Of a DNA stretch of 64,000 nt, positions 38,650 to 48,705 are shown one piece after another. This DNA comes from an uncultured euryarchaeote (GTDB taxonomy: Archaea > Thermoplasmatota > Poseidoniia > Poseidoniales > Poseidoniaceae), in NCBI GenBank assembly GCA_937899865.1, contig CALBRH010000060.1, positions 1 through 64,000 on the forward strand, given 5' to 3'. A program made the position numbers and the translations under genes. The first letter of the stretch is position 1, and every line of letters begins with the position of its first letter. Under the pieces are notes generated by a model. That model was not told the origin of the DNA. It worked only from the letters and a program-made list of their open reading frames with translations, and did not search any database.

Positions 38650-38922
38650 CTACTCTTCTTCATTAACTGGTGCGATTGGGCCACCGGCTAATTCAATTTC
38701 CTCTCTAAATGTATGGAGGATTCTTGGTTCTGTTGAAGTACGCGGGTCTATTTCTTCCACGGTATCAATTTGAATAGCGCGTCGCTTGGCTTTATGTCTC
38801 GAGCCAAGTATTGAGTAAGCTATGTGCTCAGCATCGTCCTTAGATTCTGCTGGAAGGTCAAGACTGAACTTGTTTCTAACACTACCAAATGGTGCTATTC
38901 CGGATACTCGATATGCCTTCAT
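38650..38922 (-). CDS. rpl18a: 50S ribosomal protein L18Ae/LX
   Basis: MKAYRVSG..F..AESKDDAEHIAYSILGSRHKAKRRAIQIDTVEEI. Confidence 0.85.
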   Translation of the reverse strand: MKAYRVSGIAPFGSVRNKFSLDLPAESKDDAEHIAYSILGSRHKAKRRAIQIDTVEEIDPRTSTEPRILHTFREEIELAGGPIAPVNEEE

Positions 38923-39015
38923 CGAGTCGCCGACTTACATGGTTGGTTTAAACTTCCCGTCGCGACAAAATGGTTGTTTTCTTGCGAGAGATTGACTAAT
39001 ATTGAGGTTTTGAGC

Positions 39016-42000
39016 ATGTTCATGCGGGGGGTTGTTTTGTGTATTTTGATGGCGCTTGCACCTTTTGCTAGTGCTATTTCCTTGCCGCCAGAAGTCATTG
39101 AAGAGATTGATGATGGGAAATGGTCCGAGGTTGTGATTATATCGCATTCTGAAGCATGGGATTTAGCAATGTGGAATGATGTCAAAAATGCTGGAGGCCA
39201 CCCTATTAGAACGCTCAATAGCCATGAGTTGTTAGTTTGGCAAAAATCTGATTTGAATCTTGACTCACTATTCTCTACAGTTCAATCCAAAGACGCTGAA
39301 TGGAAGTCGGATGTTAAATTCAATCGTGGCGATTATGAAGAAATCAAAATTTTATTCGAACCAAGATTGCCGGTTGAAGCATATTCTCAAATTCAAAATG
39401 ATTTGAGTTTGGTTGGAATTAATGCCCCTGAATTATCTTCATTGCCGTACTCTGTAATGCCGCACAAAATTATCGTAGACTTGTCTGATTCGATTCACTT
39501 TGATGCAATCAGTAAAATTCCTGGCATTTTGTGGATTGAGCCAGTCTTATCTGCTGAAGGACGTAATTTAGTCGCATCAGCATATCTTAGCGATGGTGAT
39601 GTTACAACACAACCTCATTGGGATTTTGGATTGAATGGTGAAGGTGTGGTTTTGGGTATTGCTGATAGTGGGCTTGATGTTGATCACTCTTGTTTTAGGA
39701 ATGGGAGTGATTCAATCGGCGAGTTTGGTAGCACTCATAGGAAGGTTTTGATTAGTAACATAAGTCTTGATGACGGGGATAACCCTGGAGAAACTGACTA
39801 TCGTCACGGAACTCATGTTGCCGGTTCGCTTGTCTGCCATGATGTTTACAATTTCCTAAATGATGAAGAGCCGATAAATGGAACCACTATGTCATATGGT
39901 GCGCAATTGGTTTTCCAAGACATTGTTTCAAATGAAGGTTGGATTCCACCAGAAAATATTACTGAATTATTATTGGAAAATACGCTATCGGGAGGGGTTA
40001 TTCACTCAAACTCATGGGGCGATGATACCACTGCTTACACCGATAGAACCGCTGATTTTGACTTGTGGGCAATTGAAGTTCCTTGGTCTCTAGCCTTTAT
40101 TGCCCCTGGTAATACTGGTGGACAATTATTAGAGCCATCAAATGGGCGCAATGTCGTTGCAATTGGCGCTTCAACAAAGTCTGCAACGCCTGAGATGTGG
40201 CAATCGTCATCAGTTGGCCCAACTGAACTTGGAACGTTTGGTATTTTTGCGGTAGCGCCTGGGGTTTCAATTAATTCGGCTAAAGCTGATGGTTTTGATG
40301 ATTCTATGAATAATGCACTAAGGTCTTCCAGCGGCACCAGTATGGCCACTCCTATTGCTGCTTCATTCAGTGGGATTGTACAACAAATGGTCGAGCAAGG
40401 TTGGATTTTAAGTTCTAACGAAGAGACTACAGAACACAATCTATCAGATATCAAACCTTCTTGGTCTTCTTTGCCAAATGAAACGATAAGTCTAGGAGAG
40501 GGATTTACTCCTTCAGGGCTTTTACTAAAATCACTACTTGTTTTAGCAACTCAAGATATTGTTGAAAACGAGCAGTATTTCTTGAGAAATAATGACTCTG
40601 GTTGGGGAGTGTTAGACCTATCTAAATTGATTGATTTTGAAGACTTAGAAGCGTCTCTTGGGGAAGAAAATCTTACCCCAACCACAAACATTTGGATTCA
40701 TGACAGTTACCGAAACTCGTTCGATGTAACAGAATGGTTAATGCAGCGATTTAATTCCAGTAATACATCAAATATTGAAGATAGTGTTTGGAATGGTGTT
40801 GGTGCTGAAGGACCATTTTTACAGTCTGGAGAAAGTTGGACAAAACGCCTAGTGCCAAATCAAAATGAAGACTTGGAAATCGTAATGTCTTTTCCAGCCA
40901 AACCAGAACCGTTTATTGTCGATGATCTAAGACTAGTTGTAACATTATCTAATGGATATATTGCAACTGGACAGGTTTACGATCCTGATGGATACTCATC
41001 GCTATTTAGCAATGAAAGTTTCAACGTTACTCAAATTCAGAAATCCAACGAAACAAGTGTTGCTGTGAAAATCTCAATGCTTGATTTAACAGATGTTGAA
41101 TGGATTGATATTGAAATTCAAGCCAACTATATTTCTCCTGGAAATAGCCCGGGGGGTGTTGGTGTAGATGGTGACCGTACGGGATTTGCATTGGCTGCAA
41201 AGGGTGTAATTAGAGATTCCATTAATTGGGAGGATTCGGATGGAGATGGGTTGCCAAATGCTGTTGATTTGTGTCCAAATCAAAATCCACAATCATATGA
41301 TTCAAACATGGATGGTTGCCCAGATGATAGTGATGATGATGGTGTTATCGATCAATATGACTTATGTCCAAGCATCAATGCTCAGGGGTTTGATAATGAT
41401 TTGAACGGTTGTATAGATGATTCGGATAATGATGGAGTTGGGGATGATATAGATGTGTGTGTAACAGAAATTATCGACATAAATTATCCTGTTGACCTTC
41501 AAGGATGTCGGCCGGTAGATTCGCCTATAATGATTGCAGAAACGGAAATTATTGGTTTGGAAAATAGTATCTGGGCTTCCACTTTAGAAGTTCGTTGGGA
41601 GATTAATGATGCAGATTTCGACCCCTATCTTACCGGTTCAAGAATAATGATTAATCAAAGTGATAATAATTCATTCTTCCCTATTGTAACATGTACAGCT
41701 GAAGATATCGAAATAATCGATAATACTCATATTTGTATTTGGAATGCAGTAGAAGATTTGCCAATATTTGATGTTACAGGCTATGGAATGCATGTACAAT
41801 TTTTTGCTCAAAGCCTAAACGCTTCACCAGAGAGTAATAATGAAATTATTTATCTTGATTCGGAATTATATTTCTCTTCAAATCGTGGAATAAATATGGA
41901 AATTATTCAAGATAAGGATAGCCATGGTTCTGCGAGTGTAATTCGTTCAATTGGCTGGGGAATAATTACTATTTTTTCTATCGCACTTATTTGTCGGAAA

Positions 42001-42090
42001 TTATGGTCTGTAATTCAAGAAGATGGGGGAGAAATTAAAAATAAACGATTTTTTACTGCGAACCCTTTTGTTGATGTTGAAAACGAATGA
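39016..42090 (+). CDS. Secreted S8 subtilisin-like serine peptidase with thrombospondin-type-3-like repeats and a C-terminal TM
   Basis: Catalytic GIADSGLD, HGTHVAG, GTSMATP; DSDGDGLPNAVDLCP / DSDDDGVIDQYDLCP / DSDNDGVGDDIDVC. ATG 39016 preferred because the track start 38824 overlaps rpl18a. Confidence 0.88.
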   Translation: MFMRGVVLCILMALAPFASAISLPPEVIEEIDDGKWSEVVIISHSEAWDLAMWNDVKNAGGHPIRTLNSHELLVWQKSDLNLDSLFSTVQSKDAEWKSDVKFNRGDYEEIKILFEPRLPVEAYSQIQNDLSLVGINAPELSSLPYSVMPHKIIVDLSDSIHFDAISKIPGILWIEPVLSAEGRNLVASAYLSDGDVTTQPHWDFGLNGEGVVLGIADSGLDVDHSCFRNGSDSIGEFGSTHRKVLISNISLDDGDNPGETDYRHGTHVAGSLVCHDVYNFLNDEEPINGTTMSYGAQLVFQDIVSNEGWIPPENITELLLENTLSGGVIHSNSWGDDTTAYTDRTADFDLWAIEVPWSLAFIAPGNTGGQLLEPSNGRNVVAIGASTKSATPEMWQSSSVGPTELGTFGIFAVAPGVSINSAKADGFDDSMNNALRSSSGTSMATPIAASFSGIVQQMVEQGWILSSNEETTEHNLSDIKPSWSSLPNETISLGEGFTPSGLLLKSLLVLATQDIVENEQYFLRNNDSGWGVLDLSKLIDFEDLEASLGEENLTPTTNIWIHDSYRNSFDVTEWLMQRFNSSNTSNIEDSVWNGVGAEGPFLQSGESWTKRLVPNQNEDLEIVMSFPAKPEPFIVDDLRLVVTLSNGYIATGQVYDPDGYSSLFSNESFNVTQIQKSNETSVAVKISMLDLTDVEWIDIEIQANYISPGNSPGGVGVDGDRTGFALAAKGVIRDSINWEDSDGDGLPNAVDLCPNQNPQSYDSNMDGCPDDSDDDGVIDQYDLCPSINAQGFDNDLNGCIDDSDNDGVGDDIDVCVTEIIDINYPVDLQGCRPVDSPIMIAETEIIGLENSIWASTLEVRWEINDADFDPYLTGSRIMINQSDNNSFFPIVTCTAEDIEIIDNTHICIWNAVEDLPIFDVTGYGMHVQFFAQSLNASPESNNEIIYLDSELYFSSNRGINMEIIQDKDSHGSASVIRSIGWGIITIFSIALICRKLWSVIQEDGGEIKNKRFFTANPFVDVENE

Positions 42091-42202
42091 CTGAAGGCGT
42101 TTTTTGGCTAATTTAGCAGGTTTTTAGCCGAGTCATGACAAGGTGAACCTTGAAGTTCAATGTCGTTTTGGCTTAGATATCCCCAAGCGGATGGTGAATG
42201 AA

Positions 42203-43207
42203 ATGAGTGACCGCCTTTATGTTGGAATTGACCTAGGAACATACCAATCTACTATCTCTTCAAGTGCTGGTGCAAGCCACACAATTGAGACTATTGTAGG
42301 TAGACCGAAAGACCCAGTAGCAAGAAACTTTCTTGGACGTGATGTGCTATTTGGCAATGATGCTTTGAAAAATAAATTAGCATGTAATTTATATCGCCCA
42401 ATGGCTGCTGGAGTTGCTCAAGATGATGAAGCAAATCTAGCTGCTGCTAAGGCTTTTGTTTCACATCTTCTCGAAACTGTTGACCCTGAAGAATTTGACG
42501 AAGTGTTTGGTGTGATTTGTTCCCCAAGTCACGTTTCATTTACTGACAAGTCCAATCTCGTTGCTACCTTGAGAGGTCAAGTTAATGCAATTATGGTCGT
42601 TACAGAACCTTTTGCAACCGCTTATGGAATTGAAGAAATCGCTGGGTCAATTGTTGTTGATATCGGCGCAGGTACAACTGATATCGCCCGTATTCACGGA
42701 ACTTTCCCGTCTGATGAAGATCAAGTCACCATTCAAGAAGCAGGTGATTGGTTGGACTTGGCATTGATGGAATTAGTCCAGAAGAAGTATACCGGTGCTC
42801 AAGTTACCAAAGATATGGTTCGCCGATGGAAAGAAGCTTCCTCATATGTTGGTAAAGATGTCAAAGAAGTAATGGTTGAGTTATCTGTTGAAGGTAAAAA
42901 GCAAGTTGTTGATATCGGCGATCTAATCGTTGAGGCTTGTGAATCAATTGTACCTCTTGTTGCAGCTGCTATCAAAAAGATCGTTGCAACTGCTGACCCT
43001 GAATATCAACCAGTACTTAGAAACAACATCATCCTATCTGGTGGCGGCTCATTGATTGATGGTATTGCAGCAAGAATGGCCGAAGAAATCTCAGATATTG
43101 GTGATGTCAATGTATGGTGTGTTGAAGATGCAATAAACAGTGTAGCAAATGGTGCACTAAAACTTGCTAGTGAAATGCCAGACGACATGTACACTGCAAT
43201 TAACTAA
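42203..43207 (+). CDS. MamK/Salactin-like actin-family ATPase
   Basis: VGIDLGT; IVGRPKD; VVTEPFATAYG; IVVDIGAGTTD; EDQVTIQEAGD; PEYQ..LRNNIILSGGGS; NGALKLA; ATG 42203 follows GGTGA. Confidence 0.85.
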   Translation: MSDRLYVGIDLGTYQSTISSSAGASHTIETIVGRPKDPVARNFLGRDVLFGNDALKNKLACNLYRPMAAGVAQDDEANLAAAKAFVSHLLETVDPEEFDEVFGVICSPSHVSFTDKSNLVATLRGQVNAIMVVTEPFATAYGIEEIAGSIVVDIGAGTTDIARIHGTFPSDEDQVTIQEAGDWLDLALMELVQKKYTGAQVTKDMVRRWKEASSYVGKDVKEVMVELSVEGKKQVVDIGDLIVEACESIVPLVAAAIKKIVATADPEYQPVLRNNIILSGGGSLIDGIAARMAEEISDIGDVNVWCVEDAINSVANGALKLASEMPDDMYTAIN

Positions 43208-43224
43208 AGTAAGTTATGACTTTT

Positions 43225-43254
43225 TCAATAAGGTCGAAAATATGGCCTTATTGA
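43225..43254. terminator. Hairpin between the actin-like and coiled-coil genes
   Basis: TCAATAAGGTC-GAAAATAT-GGCCTTATTGA: 11-bp stem with one G-T pair. Confidence 0.45.
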
Positions 43255-43305
43255 CCTAATATTATTGGGAAAGTTCAAGAGTGGTTGATTACCGATAGGC
43301 GTCGT

Positions 43306-44571
43306 ATGACAGTCGGCTCCTCGTCGCCCAGCGGAATAAAACGTGTTGGTGACACCTCTTCTGAAGAACGAGCAGCATTGGAAGGAATGCTACAAGGATA
43401 CCCTGTTGAACAACTTGTTGAAGAGGTATTGATCGCTTGGGATGAGTTGGCAAAAAGAAATGATGAAATGGTATCTGTTAAGCAACGATTGCGAGTTTTG
43501 GAACTTGACCTTGCTGAAAGAGAAGACATGGTAGCGCCTGAAATCGCTCGAATGAATGATTTAGAGGCGGAATTAGAAGAACGTCGTAGCCAAATGGCCC
43601 ATCTTGAAAGATTGTTATCAGATGCTAGACAAGATTTAGCCGCACAACAAGCCTCACTATCCAGTGAAGAAAAAACTCGGTTAGAAGATGAAGTTGAAGC
43701 GTTGAAGGGACTTACCTCTGAACAAGATGAGATAATAGGTGAAATGGAAGGTCGCGTTTCTCAAATGGTTGAAGCATTAGAAAGAGCTGCTGATGCTGGA
43801 TTAACATCAGTAACTGCTGATGAAGTTAGAAGTCTTAAATCTCAAGTTGACAATATGACAAAGCAGTATGAAGTGGAAGCTTCTGCTAACAAAGCATTAG
43901 AAGAAGAACGTCAAAGACTACGTGATATTGCTGATAGATTGCGTGGATTATTGGATGCTAGAGATAATCGTCTAACAGAACTTGAAGAACAATTAGAGCG
44001 GGTAATGCAAGGACCTCGTTCTGTTTCTGCTGAACATGACTACCTTGTTGAGCAAATTGAAGAATTAAAGCGTCGATTGTTAGAGAGAAATAGAGAATAT
44101 GAATCTCTAAGAAGGAGAGAAAGGCGTCTTCATAGTGATGTCTTTGAAAGAGATGAAAGAGTTCAACAAATGTCACTAACAATGAGTGATTTAGAGTCGG
44201 CTTTACAAGATAGAACTGCTGAATTGAGGGAGTTAGAAAGTATTAGAGAAACCATGTCTAATGAATTAGATTCAGTTAGAAGAGGAGAGCGTACAAGAGA
44301 AGTTGTCGGACGTGTCTTTGCTGATTCACTCTCTTTGGTGAGGGGGCATGATGAGCGAGAAATAAAGCGAGAAGCTTATGCTAACTCGCCAGATGTTGAA
44401 AGAAAGTTGTCCACGCCAGATTTGGAAGATATGGCAAACCTTGCAGAAGGTGGACGAGTAGACCTTGATGTTGAAGAAACTGTAATTGAGCCTGGTATGG
44501 ATGTAGACACTAATCGTCCTGCAGCCCCTGGAGGAAGTGGCGACCCCGTTATCTTCGAAGATGAAGATTAA
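43306..44571 (+). CDS. Long coiled-coil protein with an acidic C-terminal tail
   Basis: About 300 aa of E/R/L-rich heptads; no TM and no recognisable ATPase motif; ends GDPVIFEDED. Confidence 0.8.
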   Translation: MTVGSSSPSGIKRVGDTSSEERAALEGMLQGYPVEQLVEEVLIAWDELAKRNDEMVSVKQRLRVLELDLAEREDMVAPEIARMNDLEAELEERRSQMAHLERLLSDARQDLAAQQASLSSEEKTRLEDEVEALKGLTSEQDEIIGEMEGRVSQMVEALERAADAGLTSVTADEVRSLKSQVDNMTKQYEVEASANKALEEERQRLRDIADRLRGLLDARDNRLTELEEQLERVMQGPRSVSAEHDYLVEQIEELKRRLLERNREYESLRRRERRLHSDVFERDERVQQMSLTMSDLESALQDRTAELRELESIRETMSNELDSVRRGERTREVVGRVFADSLSLVRGHDEREIKREAYANSPDVERKLSTPDLEDMANLAEGGRVDLDVEETVIEPGMDVDTNRPAAPGGSGDPVIFEDED

Positions 44572-47827: not shown

Positions 47828-47898
47828 TTTTTTTTCGATAGTTAAAGAGATTAACACCGTTTTATAAGTATTAAGTCGTCGAGGCCGGTTTGAGAAAT

Positions 47899-48705
47899 AT
47901 GTTTAAATCAAACTTGAAGAGAACATCGAGCCTGCTTTTGATCGGAACCCTCGGCCTATTGGCGTTAGGAAACGTTAGTGCTAATGTTGCTGGAGATGGA
48001 TACATGGATGAGACCGATATGGTCGCTGTAACTTTCTGGCTTGCAACTGCTATGATGTTAGCATCTACCGTTTTCTTCATGTTAGAGCGCCAAAATGTAG
48101 CGCCAAAATGGCGAACTTCAATGACTGTTGCTGCACTGGTAACTGGTGTTGCTTGGTACCACTACACTTACATGAGGAAGCATTGGGAAGCTTTCGAAAC
48201 TTCTCCACTAGTTATGAGGTATATTGATTGGTTGATCACTGTACCACTTCAAGTTTCTGAGTTCTACCTAATACTTGCAGCAATTGGTGCTGCAACAGCC
48301 GCATTATTCTGGAGATTGTTTGGTGCTTCTCTAATTATGTTGCTTACTGGTTTCTTAGCAGAATCTGGTGAGTTGGATGATGGATTAACTTGGCCATTGT
48401 TCGTTATCGGTTGTGTTGCATGGATTTACATAATCTATGAAATATGGGCTGGTGAAGCAAAGAAGAATGTCGGTGATGCTAGTGAAGGTACTCAATTCGC
48501 TTTCAAAGCAATGGCTTTCATTCTAACATTTGGATGGGCCATCTATCCAATTGGTTTCATGATGGGAGAAAGTGGAGACGCTGGCGATATTGAAATGTTA
48601 AACATTCTATACAATGTTGCTGACGTAGTCAACAAGACTGCTTTTGGTCTAATGGTTTGGTATGCTGCTACAATGGATACCAAAGCATCTGGATCTGAAG
48701 AGTGA
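47899..48705 (+). CDS. Proteorhodopsin, DTE proton pump, blue-tuned (Gln105 equivalent)
   Basis: WYHYTYMR (His75 equivalent), RYIDWLITVPLQVSEF, GWAIYPIG, ADVVNKTAFG (retinal Lys). Confidence 0.95.
   Translation: MFKSNLKRTSSLLLIGTLGLLALGNVSANVAGDGYMDETDMVAVTFWLATAMMLASTVFFMLERQNVAPKWRTSMTVAALVTGVAWYHYTYMRKHWEAFETSPLVMRYIDWLITVPLQVSEFYLILAAIGAATAALFWRLFGASLIMLLTGFLAESGELDDGLTWPLFVIGCVAWIYIIYEIWAGEAKKNVGDASEGTQFAFKAMAFILTFGWAIYPIGFMMGESGDAGDIEMLNILYNVADVVNKTAFGLMVWYAATMDTKASGSEE

Follow-up and report, generated by a model that had tools for sequence, protein, structure and literature searches.

The question raised by this locus is what an actin of the MamK type does in a planktonic archaeon, at a locus that has no magnetosome context. 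The window, i.e. the whole stretch of 64,000 nucleotides that was analysed, represents contig C60 of a 2.01-Mb assembly that is 91% complete. The first-pass annotation had assigned the DNA to a planktonic archaeon, in agreement with the archaellins and the GGGP synthase encoded in the genome and with the names of near-identical database proteins (Candidatus Poseidoniaceae/Poseidoniales). Archaea of Marine Group II are uncultured and among the most abundant archaea of the surface ocean, and we know of nothing that has been established about their cell biology. Our reading, to which we give a rough probability of 0.6, is that the gene, here called actA, encodes a cytoplasmic, ATP-driven, filament-forming MamK-like actin, that it belongs to an old pair of paralogues in the Poseidoniales, and that its product acts together with a coiled-coil rod encoded downstream (cc) to organise the cell.

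The actA gene and its coiled-coil neighbour

The actA gene is located on the plus strand at 42203-43207, extending from an ATG at 42203 to a TAA stop codon at 43205-43207, and its 334 codons encode a 334-aa MamK-like actin-fold ATPase with a pI of 4.46. The reading frame also offers an in-frame GTG at 42143, which would add 20 aa; the ATG is preferred, since the orthologues and MamK align from there. All motifs that had been quoted for the protein were recovered in the translation, i.e. IVGRPKD (residues 31-37), VVTEPFATAYG (132-142), VDIGAGTTD (152-160), EDQVT (172-176), AGD (180-182), PEYQ (266-269), LRNNIILSGGGS (272-283) and GALKLA (317-322). According to the translation and an AF2 model the actin fold begins at residue 4, and neither showed an N-terminal extension, an amphipathic helix, a membrane-targeting helix or a transmembrane segment. 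The base composition around the gene is even.

The neighbours of actA encode a subtilase, prefoldin, FtsY, AhpC, GGGP synthase, an ABC transporter/exporter and a rhodopsin. Neither mam genes nor mreC or mreD were found within ~9 kb on either side, so that the earlier statement that none of them is nearby holds over this distance. The S8 subtilase bears a C-terminal transmembrane anchor (1088 aa; 38824-42090, plus strand), and its position upstream of actA is kept across three families. A functional tie between actA and the subtilase was considered and is not supported despite this order-wide synteny, since the short cytoplasmic tail of the subtilase is not conserved and thus offers no support for a link to the actin. 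The bacteriorhodopsin-family gene at 47890-48705 (plus strand; Pfam E 9e-46) is consistent with photoheterotrophy, which is known for Marine Group II. The genome also carries three tubulin-family genes; two are FtsZ-like, and the third, divergent one (G000:C54:65524-65994, 61.7 bits) may be CetZ-like. ESCRT-III/Snf7 proteins were not found in the 91%-complete genome.

In the same orientation as actA and 113 bp downstream lies cc (43321-44571, plus strand; a TTG at 43285 is an alternative start). Translation, AF2 modelling and heptad analysis describe its product as a 416-aa acidic head-rod-tail coiled-coil protein with a pI of 4.56. The AF2 model showed long helices at residues 29-161, 166-229 and 236-355, followed by a disordered acidic tail, and the helix breaks fall exactly at the conserved motifs AGLTS and GPRS. 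Hydrophobic residues are enriched at heptad positions a and d (0.518 vs 0.254 +/- 0.027 in shuffled sequences, ~10 sd). An alignment covering three families revealed a near-invariant core at 231-279, GPRSVSAEHDYLVEQIEELKRRLLERNREYESLRRRERRLH.DVFERDE; it further showed conservation of AGLTS, of motifs in the N-terminal part and, ahead of the acidic end, of a PGG..P motif in the C-terminal part. The protein has an intermediate-filament-like architecture, i.e. a head, a segmented heptad rod with linkers, and a tail, with no enzymatic or transmembrane domain. Language-model look-alikes outside its own clusters were crescentin rod-domain proteins (0.92), a resemblance that serves as no more than a lead. 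No Pfam domain, including Rod_CreS (PF19220), was matched at E 1e-3, profile searches of the PDB gave no match, no actin-binding domain of a known kind was recognised, and no homologue was detected outside the Poseidoniales loci in Pfam, in the PDB or in the MamK-like loci searched. When the MamK-like loci were subjected to a crude heptad scan, a long coiled-coil neighbour was seen only at the Poseidoniales actA locus.

Between the two genes, a stem-loop with an 11-bp stem and an 8-nt loop (43225-43254, plus strand) begins 18 nt past the actA stop codon. RNA folding of 43205-43275 yielded -19 kcal/mol (z -4.1); none of 200 shuffled sequences was as stable. The element could mark a transcript end or act as an attenuator. 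Owing to the gap of ~110 bp and the stable hairpin, actA and cc may be transcribed separately, which favours a reading in which the actA filament works alone or with partners encoded elsewhere, while cc merely happens to be syntenic and serves some other structural purpose. The same reading gains from the subtilase and the GGGP synthase, which are equally syntenic with no plausible functional link, indicating that gene order in this region is conserved by descent, and from genome G025, which has an A-type actin with no cc downstream. In all other A-type loci examined across the three families, however, cc is found directly downstream of actA, and it follows the patchy distribution of the actin in family f3 down to single genomes, as would not be expected of housekeeping neighbours. 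Its genus-by-genus tallies equal those of the actin, including the sole positive genome of genus g23 (G152, where both genes are on the same contig) and six of the eight genomes of g11. The predicted architecture of cc is likewise that of a cytoskeletal protein. That the two genes are unconnected in function is therefore regarded as unlikely.

We prefer the reading in which actA and cc act together; their adjacency and co-occurrence suggest that the two proteins may bind each other. Complex prediction with actA and full-length cc gave a score of 0.00 with both alignments used, a result that carries no weight either way.

Distribution of the module and the second paralogue

Distribution was surveyed with the MamK model in 201 Poseidoniales genomes that were at least 80% complete. 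Matches were obtained in 99/99 genomes of family f1 (Poseidoniaceae, the family of the window), in 2/2 of f2 and in 27/99 of f3, and most positive genomes carry both actA and its paralogue actB. Within f3 the matches were confined to genera with genomes of 1.6-2.2 Mb; no actin was found in six f3/MGIIb genera with genomes of 1.3-1.6 Mb (0/12, 0/4, 0/15, 0/8, 0/15 and 0/5; 59 genomes). The actA module is dispensable, given that the search did not find it in those MGIIb genera whose genomes are smallest. The loss covers the whole set of actA, cc and actB and could thus reflect general genome streamlining. Between families the identity of actA is 62-74%, and judging from sequence comparison the gene is conserved under constraint and was duplicated early in the Poseidoniales. 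Among other Thermoplasmatota, a relative was present in 5 of 126 sampled genomes, three of them scoring above the MamK cut-off (430-435 bits).

A link with the archaellum was considered and rejected: the actin occurs in genera g3, g4 and g21, where no archaellin was found, while g10 and g24 have archaellins and no actin. Genome G027, which has 6% contamination, contains two FtsY-prefoldin-subtilase-actA-cc-GGGPS blocks on C24 and C4 (loci L015 and L019), with actA copies that are 74% and 63% identical to that of the window. This double block probably represents two co-binned organisms and not a duplication.

The distribution also bears on the reading of actA as a DNA-partitioning actin of salactin-like or ParM-like type, whose filaments would separate chromosome copies by pushing or pulling, through an adaptor that could be cc or some other protein. 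MamK and salactin are among the closest cytomotive actins and both segregate cellular contents (PMC10746226, PMC5597319), and actA is chromosomal and conserved. Against this, the 59 genomes of six MGIIb genera in which the module was not found must still segregate their DNA. The cc protein is strongly acidic, consists of coiled coil and has no DNA-binding domain, and a search around actA and cc revealed no centromere-like iteron or repeat array, the only repeats being short two-copy ones within coding sequence. Furthermore, the salactin model NF053533 gave 30.2 bits with actA (cut-off 400), and PF25229 gave 24 bits (threshold 27.1). A role in DNA partition is accordingly considered improbable, and organisation of the cell by actA together with cc remains our preferred reading.

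The paralogue actB (G000:C51:171674-172666) encodes a protein of 341 aa that is 48% identical to actA of the same genome, and its module spans G000:C51:170500-173400 (locus L003:8524-11329). Every B-type locus examined encodes, ahead of actB, a 338-aa protein that carries a zinc ribbon at each end and usually also, after actB and on the opposite strand, a membrane protein whose zinc ribbon is C-terminal. Together with its zinc-ribbon neighbours, actB looks like a further conserved actin module, one that has other partners. Beside the MamK-like genes of other lineages, no homologues of cc or of the 338-aa zinc-ribbon protein were found at E 1e-6. The idea that the zinc-ribbon partner is fused to the actin in long bacterial forms was rejected.

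Modules of the Poseidoniales type were also observed on three contigs with bacterial names, i.e. L061 ('Yoonia sp.'), L074 ('Deltaproteobacteria bacterium' SAG) and L108 ('Verrucomicrobiales bacterium'). L061 and L074 encode actins that share 85-87% identity with actB, together with the zinc-ribbon gene, and L108 carries actA and cc. These contigs are probably mis-binned or contaminant.

Family membership and fold of actA

In phmmer searches of the PDB, actA matched MamK best (5JYG/5LJV, E 4e-63, residues 3-330), followed by BeeR (8R2N, 1e-40), MreB (1e-13) and eukaryotic actins (~1e-7). The NCBIfam MamK model NF040964 gave 337.7 bits (E 7e-101), which is below its cut-off of 400 bits, and the BeeR model NF053558 gave 212 bits (cut-off 530). 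None of the 201 Poseidoniales genomes had a protein reaching 400 bits on the MamK model; actB-type proteins scored ~355-384 bits and actA-type proteins ~330-354 bits. At the level of sequence, the likeness of actA to MamK is far beyond chance, and with its sub-cut-off score and no mam genes nearby actA is classed as MamK-like but not as a strict MamK.

Three maximum-likelihood trees were calculated, in which clades were labelled by NCBIfam scores, PDB identity and organism names. The outgroup consisted of true MreBs taken from three bacteria in which a MamK-like gene is present as well, and six genuine salactins (465-578 bits) were added. The MamK-like superclade, which includes actA, was separated from MreB with 100% support. 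The first-pass annotation had described the gene as a MamK/Salactin-type actin and had named branching with MreB or Hsp70-like proteins as evidence to the contrary, a placement not seen here, where actA falls within the MamK-like superclade. Its MamK part is borne out by sequence, profile, fold and tree. The salactin part is not upheld: besides the low score on the salactin model, the genuine salactins fall inside the MamK-like superclade of the MreB-rooted tree on a separate branch that is 5.3 substitutions/site long.

The orthologues of actA and actB (PosA and PosB) form sister clades (99%). Their common sister (93%) consists of proteins of 523-1232 aa in a bacterial, KSB1-like context. These long proteins (P0129-P0143) have a conserved N-terminal coiled-coil domain of ~110 aa, a low-complexity/disordered linker of 100-800 aa and a C-terminal MamK-like actin; at one of their loci (L036:8001-10364) the Ddl encoded next to the actin gene shares 70% identity with that of candidate division KSB1. 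Among species-representative genomes, no long KSB1-like actin was found at >50% identity. Homology of cc with the coiled-coil domain at the N-terminus of these actins, as in a Rosetta-stone fusion, was rejected (hhalign probability 1.2%, no BLAST match).

A mostly archaeal clade of 36 rows (SH-aLRT 96) holds the Poseidoniales actins together with those of other Thermoplasmatota and of ANME-2/Methanoperedens. Bona fide MamK, i.e. P0172 (508 bits on the MamK model, 463 bits to 5JYG) and its relatives, forms a clade of 10 rows that lies apart from the 36-row clade in the best trees. Forcing the Poseidoniales and the true-MamK clade together was not rejected in an AU test (delta lnL 13.0, p 0.281), and the deep order of the MamK-like tree is soft. 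The BeeR-like proteins form a long-stemmed clade of their own, and a large separate clade contains Planctomycetota, including Kuenenia and Brocadiaceae.

MamK-like actins were common in non-magnetotactic Planctomycetota, anammox bacteria included (loci L038-L117); examples are Kuenenia stuttgartiensis (L089), Brocadiaceae (L087/L103) and Phycisphaeraceae (L096). A MamK-like gene and a true MreB coexist in the three genomes checked, i.e. those of Kuenenia, a Phycisphaeraceae bacterium and a Nitrospirae bacterium. Outside the Poseidoniales, a charged, helix-rich ORF of ~200 aa abuts the MamK-like gene at several loci (L079:6994-7605 and L112:1510-2118, both Methanoperedens; L055:5343-5939; L096:5245-5868) and could encode a small partner.

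Database entries for proteins near-identical to actA, which come from Candidatus Poseidoniaceae/Poseidoniales MAGs, are named 'hypothetical' or 'rod shape-determining protein (MreB)'. Pfam matched broad models only, i.e. Actin and, as the best match, MreB_Mbl (PF06723, 81.7 bits; threshold 27), and both the name and this match speak for actA as an MreB-type determinant of rod shape. The NCBIfam MreB models (TIGR00904/NF010539), however, gave 72-80 bits with cut-offs of 293-365, as compared with 338 bits for MamK, and the true MreBs were the fully supported outgroup of the tree. In addition, actA lacks both the mreC/mreD neighbours and the N-terminal amphipathic helix, and to our knowledge the archaea of this phylum do not synthesise peptidoglycan, so that MreB would have no such process to guide. 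An MreB-type function is thus very improbable, and the public label 'MreB, rod shape-determining protein' is misleading for actA-type genes.

The AF2 model of actA, which was built on an alignment of 64 relatives, reached a pLDDT of 92.8 and a pTM of 0.89. In Foldseek searches the top match was the polymerised MamK protomer 5ljv_A (TM 0.94/0.96, rmsd 1.4 A), followed by BeeR (TM 0.90), with MreB and actins at ~0.8. Residues D10, G12, E135, D153, G155, K210, E211 and G280-S283 are conserved across the 64 family members, G8, G12, D153, G155, K210 and G280 being invariant; conservation also extends to the phosphate-1, phosphate-2 and adenosine motifs, all of them intact. In the phmmer alignment E135 pairs with E143 of MamK and D153 with D161, whose role in MamK was reportedly described by Draper in 2011 and Ozyamak in 2013 with the mutants E143A/D161A. 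From these conserved residues the ATPase site of actA is predicted to be competent. A non-polymerising actin-fold ATPase, be it chaperone-, kinase- or FtsA-like, is the least credible of the readings: the actin/Hsp70 superfamily is rich in enzymes that form no filaments, and actA does show weak matches to EutJ, butyrate kinase and DnaK (E 1e-3 to 1e-5), but these lie tens of orders of magnitude below those to MamK and BeeR, whose capacity to form filaments is proven, and the model superposes best on MamK in its filament state.

Proposed mechanism and comparison with known systems

With its near-constant neighbour cc and a sister copy in the same genome, actA is probably part of an undescribed internal filament system. 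In the mechanism that we propose, ATP-bound actA monomers would assemble into filaments of the MamK type, and hydrolysis via E135/D153 would make these filaments dynamic. Dimeric cc rods would bind to the filaments and bundle them, stabilise them or tether them to some structure, with the invariant core 231-279 or the conserved termini of cc as candidate sites of contact. This role of cc is modelled on the adaptors of MamK (MamJ, Mad proteins) or on crescentin with MreB. In these wall-less cells the most likely role of the module is to organise either the interior or the shape of the cell, and the positioning of some cargo by the filaments is plausible. A wider proposal, which we put forward tentatively as somewhat doubtful, is that a single duplication gave rise to two actin cytomotive systems organising the cell interior, i.e. 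actA with its intermediate-filament-like rod, and actB with the double zinc-ribbon protein and the membrane zinc-ribbon protein.

If this were true, two systems would shape the cells, place the division site or partition the contents of wall-less planktonic archaea. It would also imply an actin cytoskeleton of composite type beyond the Asgard archaea and the Crenarchaeota, with an ancestry shared across domains with the KSB1-like bacterial actins. The two strongly conserved MamK-like actins, with a private partner for each, offer a concrete and expressible handle on the cytoskeleton of Marine Group II. The MamK family itself is broadened from a magnetosome specialist to a group of cytomotive filaments found in Planctomycetota (anammox bacteria included), KSB1-like bacteria, ANME-2/Methanoperedens and Thermoplasmatota. 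A paper of 2009 touched briefly on MamK-branch proteins of archaea (PMC2651865); our literature search found no paper that joins MamK with Poseidoniales or Marine Group II.

The MamK filament is parallel, non-staggered and two-stranded, and it hydrolyses ATP. MamK (5LJV, 5JYG) and actA have the same fold, size and ATP-binding and catalytic residues, and neither is extended; identity is ~40% over the full length, as estimated from the phmmer alignment, and 33-34% when based on structure. Each of the two is also accompanied by an accessory protein that is acidic and/or a coiled coil, although cc is unrelated by sequence to MamJ or the Mad proteins. Unlike MamK, actA scores below the family cut-off, falls into another, mostly archaeal clade in the best tree (although the AU test did not reject a joint clade), has no magnetosome context and belongs to an aerobic planktonic archaeal host; it is no magnetosome system. 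Filament formation is established for MamK (PMC5597319) and also for two MamK-like actins of non-magnetotactic bacteria, i.e. BeeR (PMC11929497) and saltatorellin (bioRxiv 10.1101/817700). BeeR of Verrucomicrobiota (8R2N), the second-best match of actA in both structure and sequence, has a disordered N-terminal extension of 30-50 aa that actA lacks. Like actA, BeeR and saltatorellin of Saltatorellota, the latter as judged from its published description, are relatives of MamK outside magnetotaxis. Salactin of Halobacterium, an archaeal actin with MamK as its closest subfamily (PMC10746226), shares the superclade of actA when the tree is rooted on MreB; its charged, disordered N-terminal tail is absent from actA.

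Crescentin is a coiled-coil rod that acts with MreB. Unlike crescentin, cc matches neither Rod_CreS nor any other coiled-coil family, and it has no sequence match in the PDB. MamJ/LimJ act on MamK filaments (PMC13170167), and MamK and Mad28 work with the coiled-coil proteins Mad20/23/25/26 (PMC12748827). Crescentin/MreB and the MamK/Mad28 networks thus combine an actin-like filament with intermediate-filament-like rods, and cc is similar to these rods in architecture.
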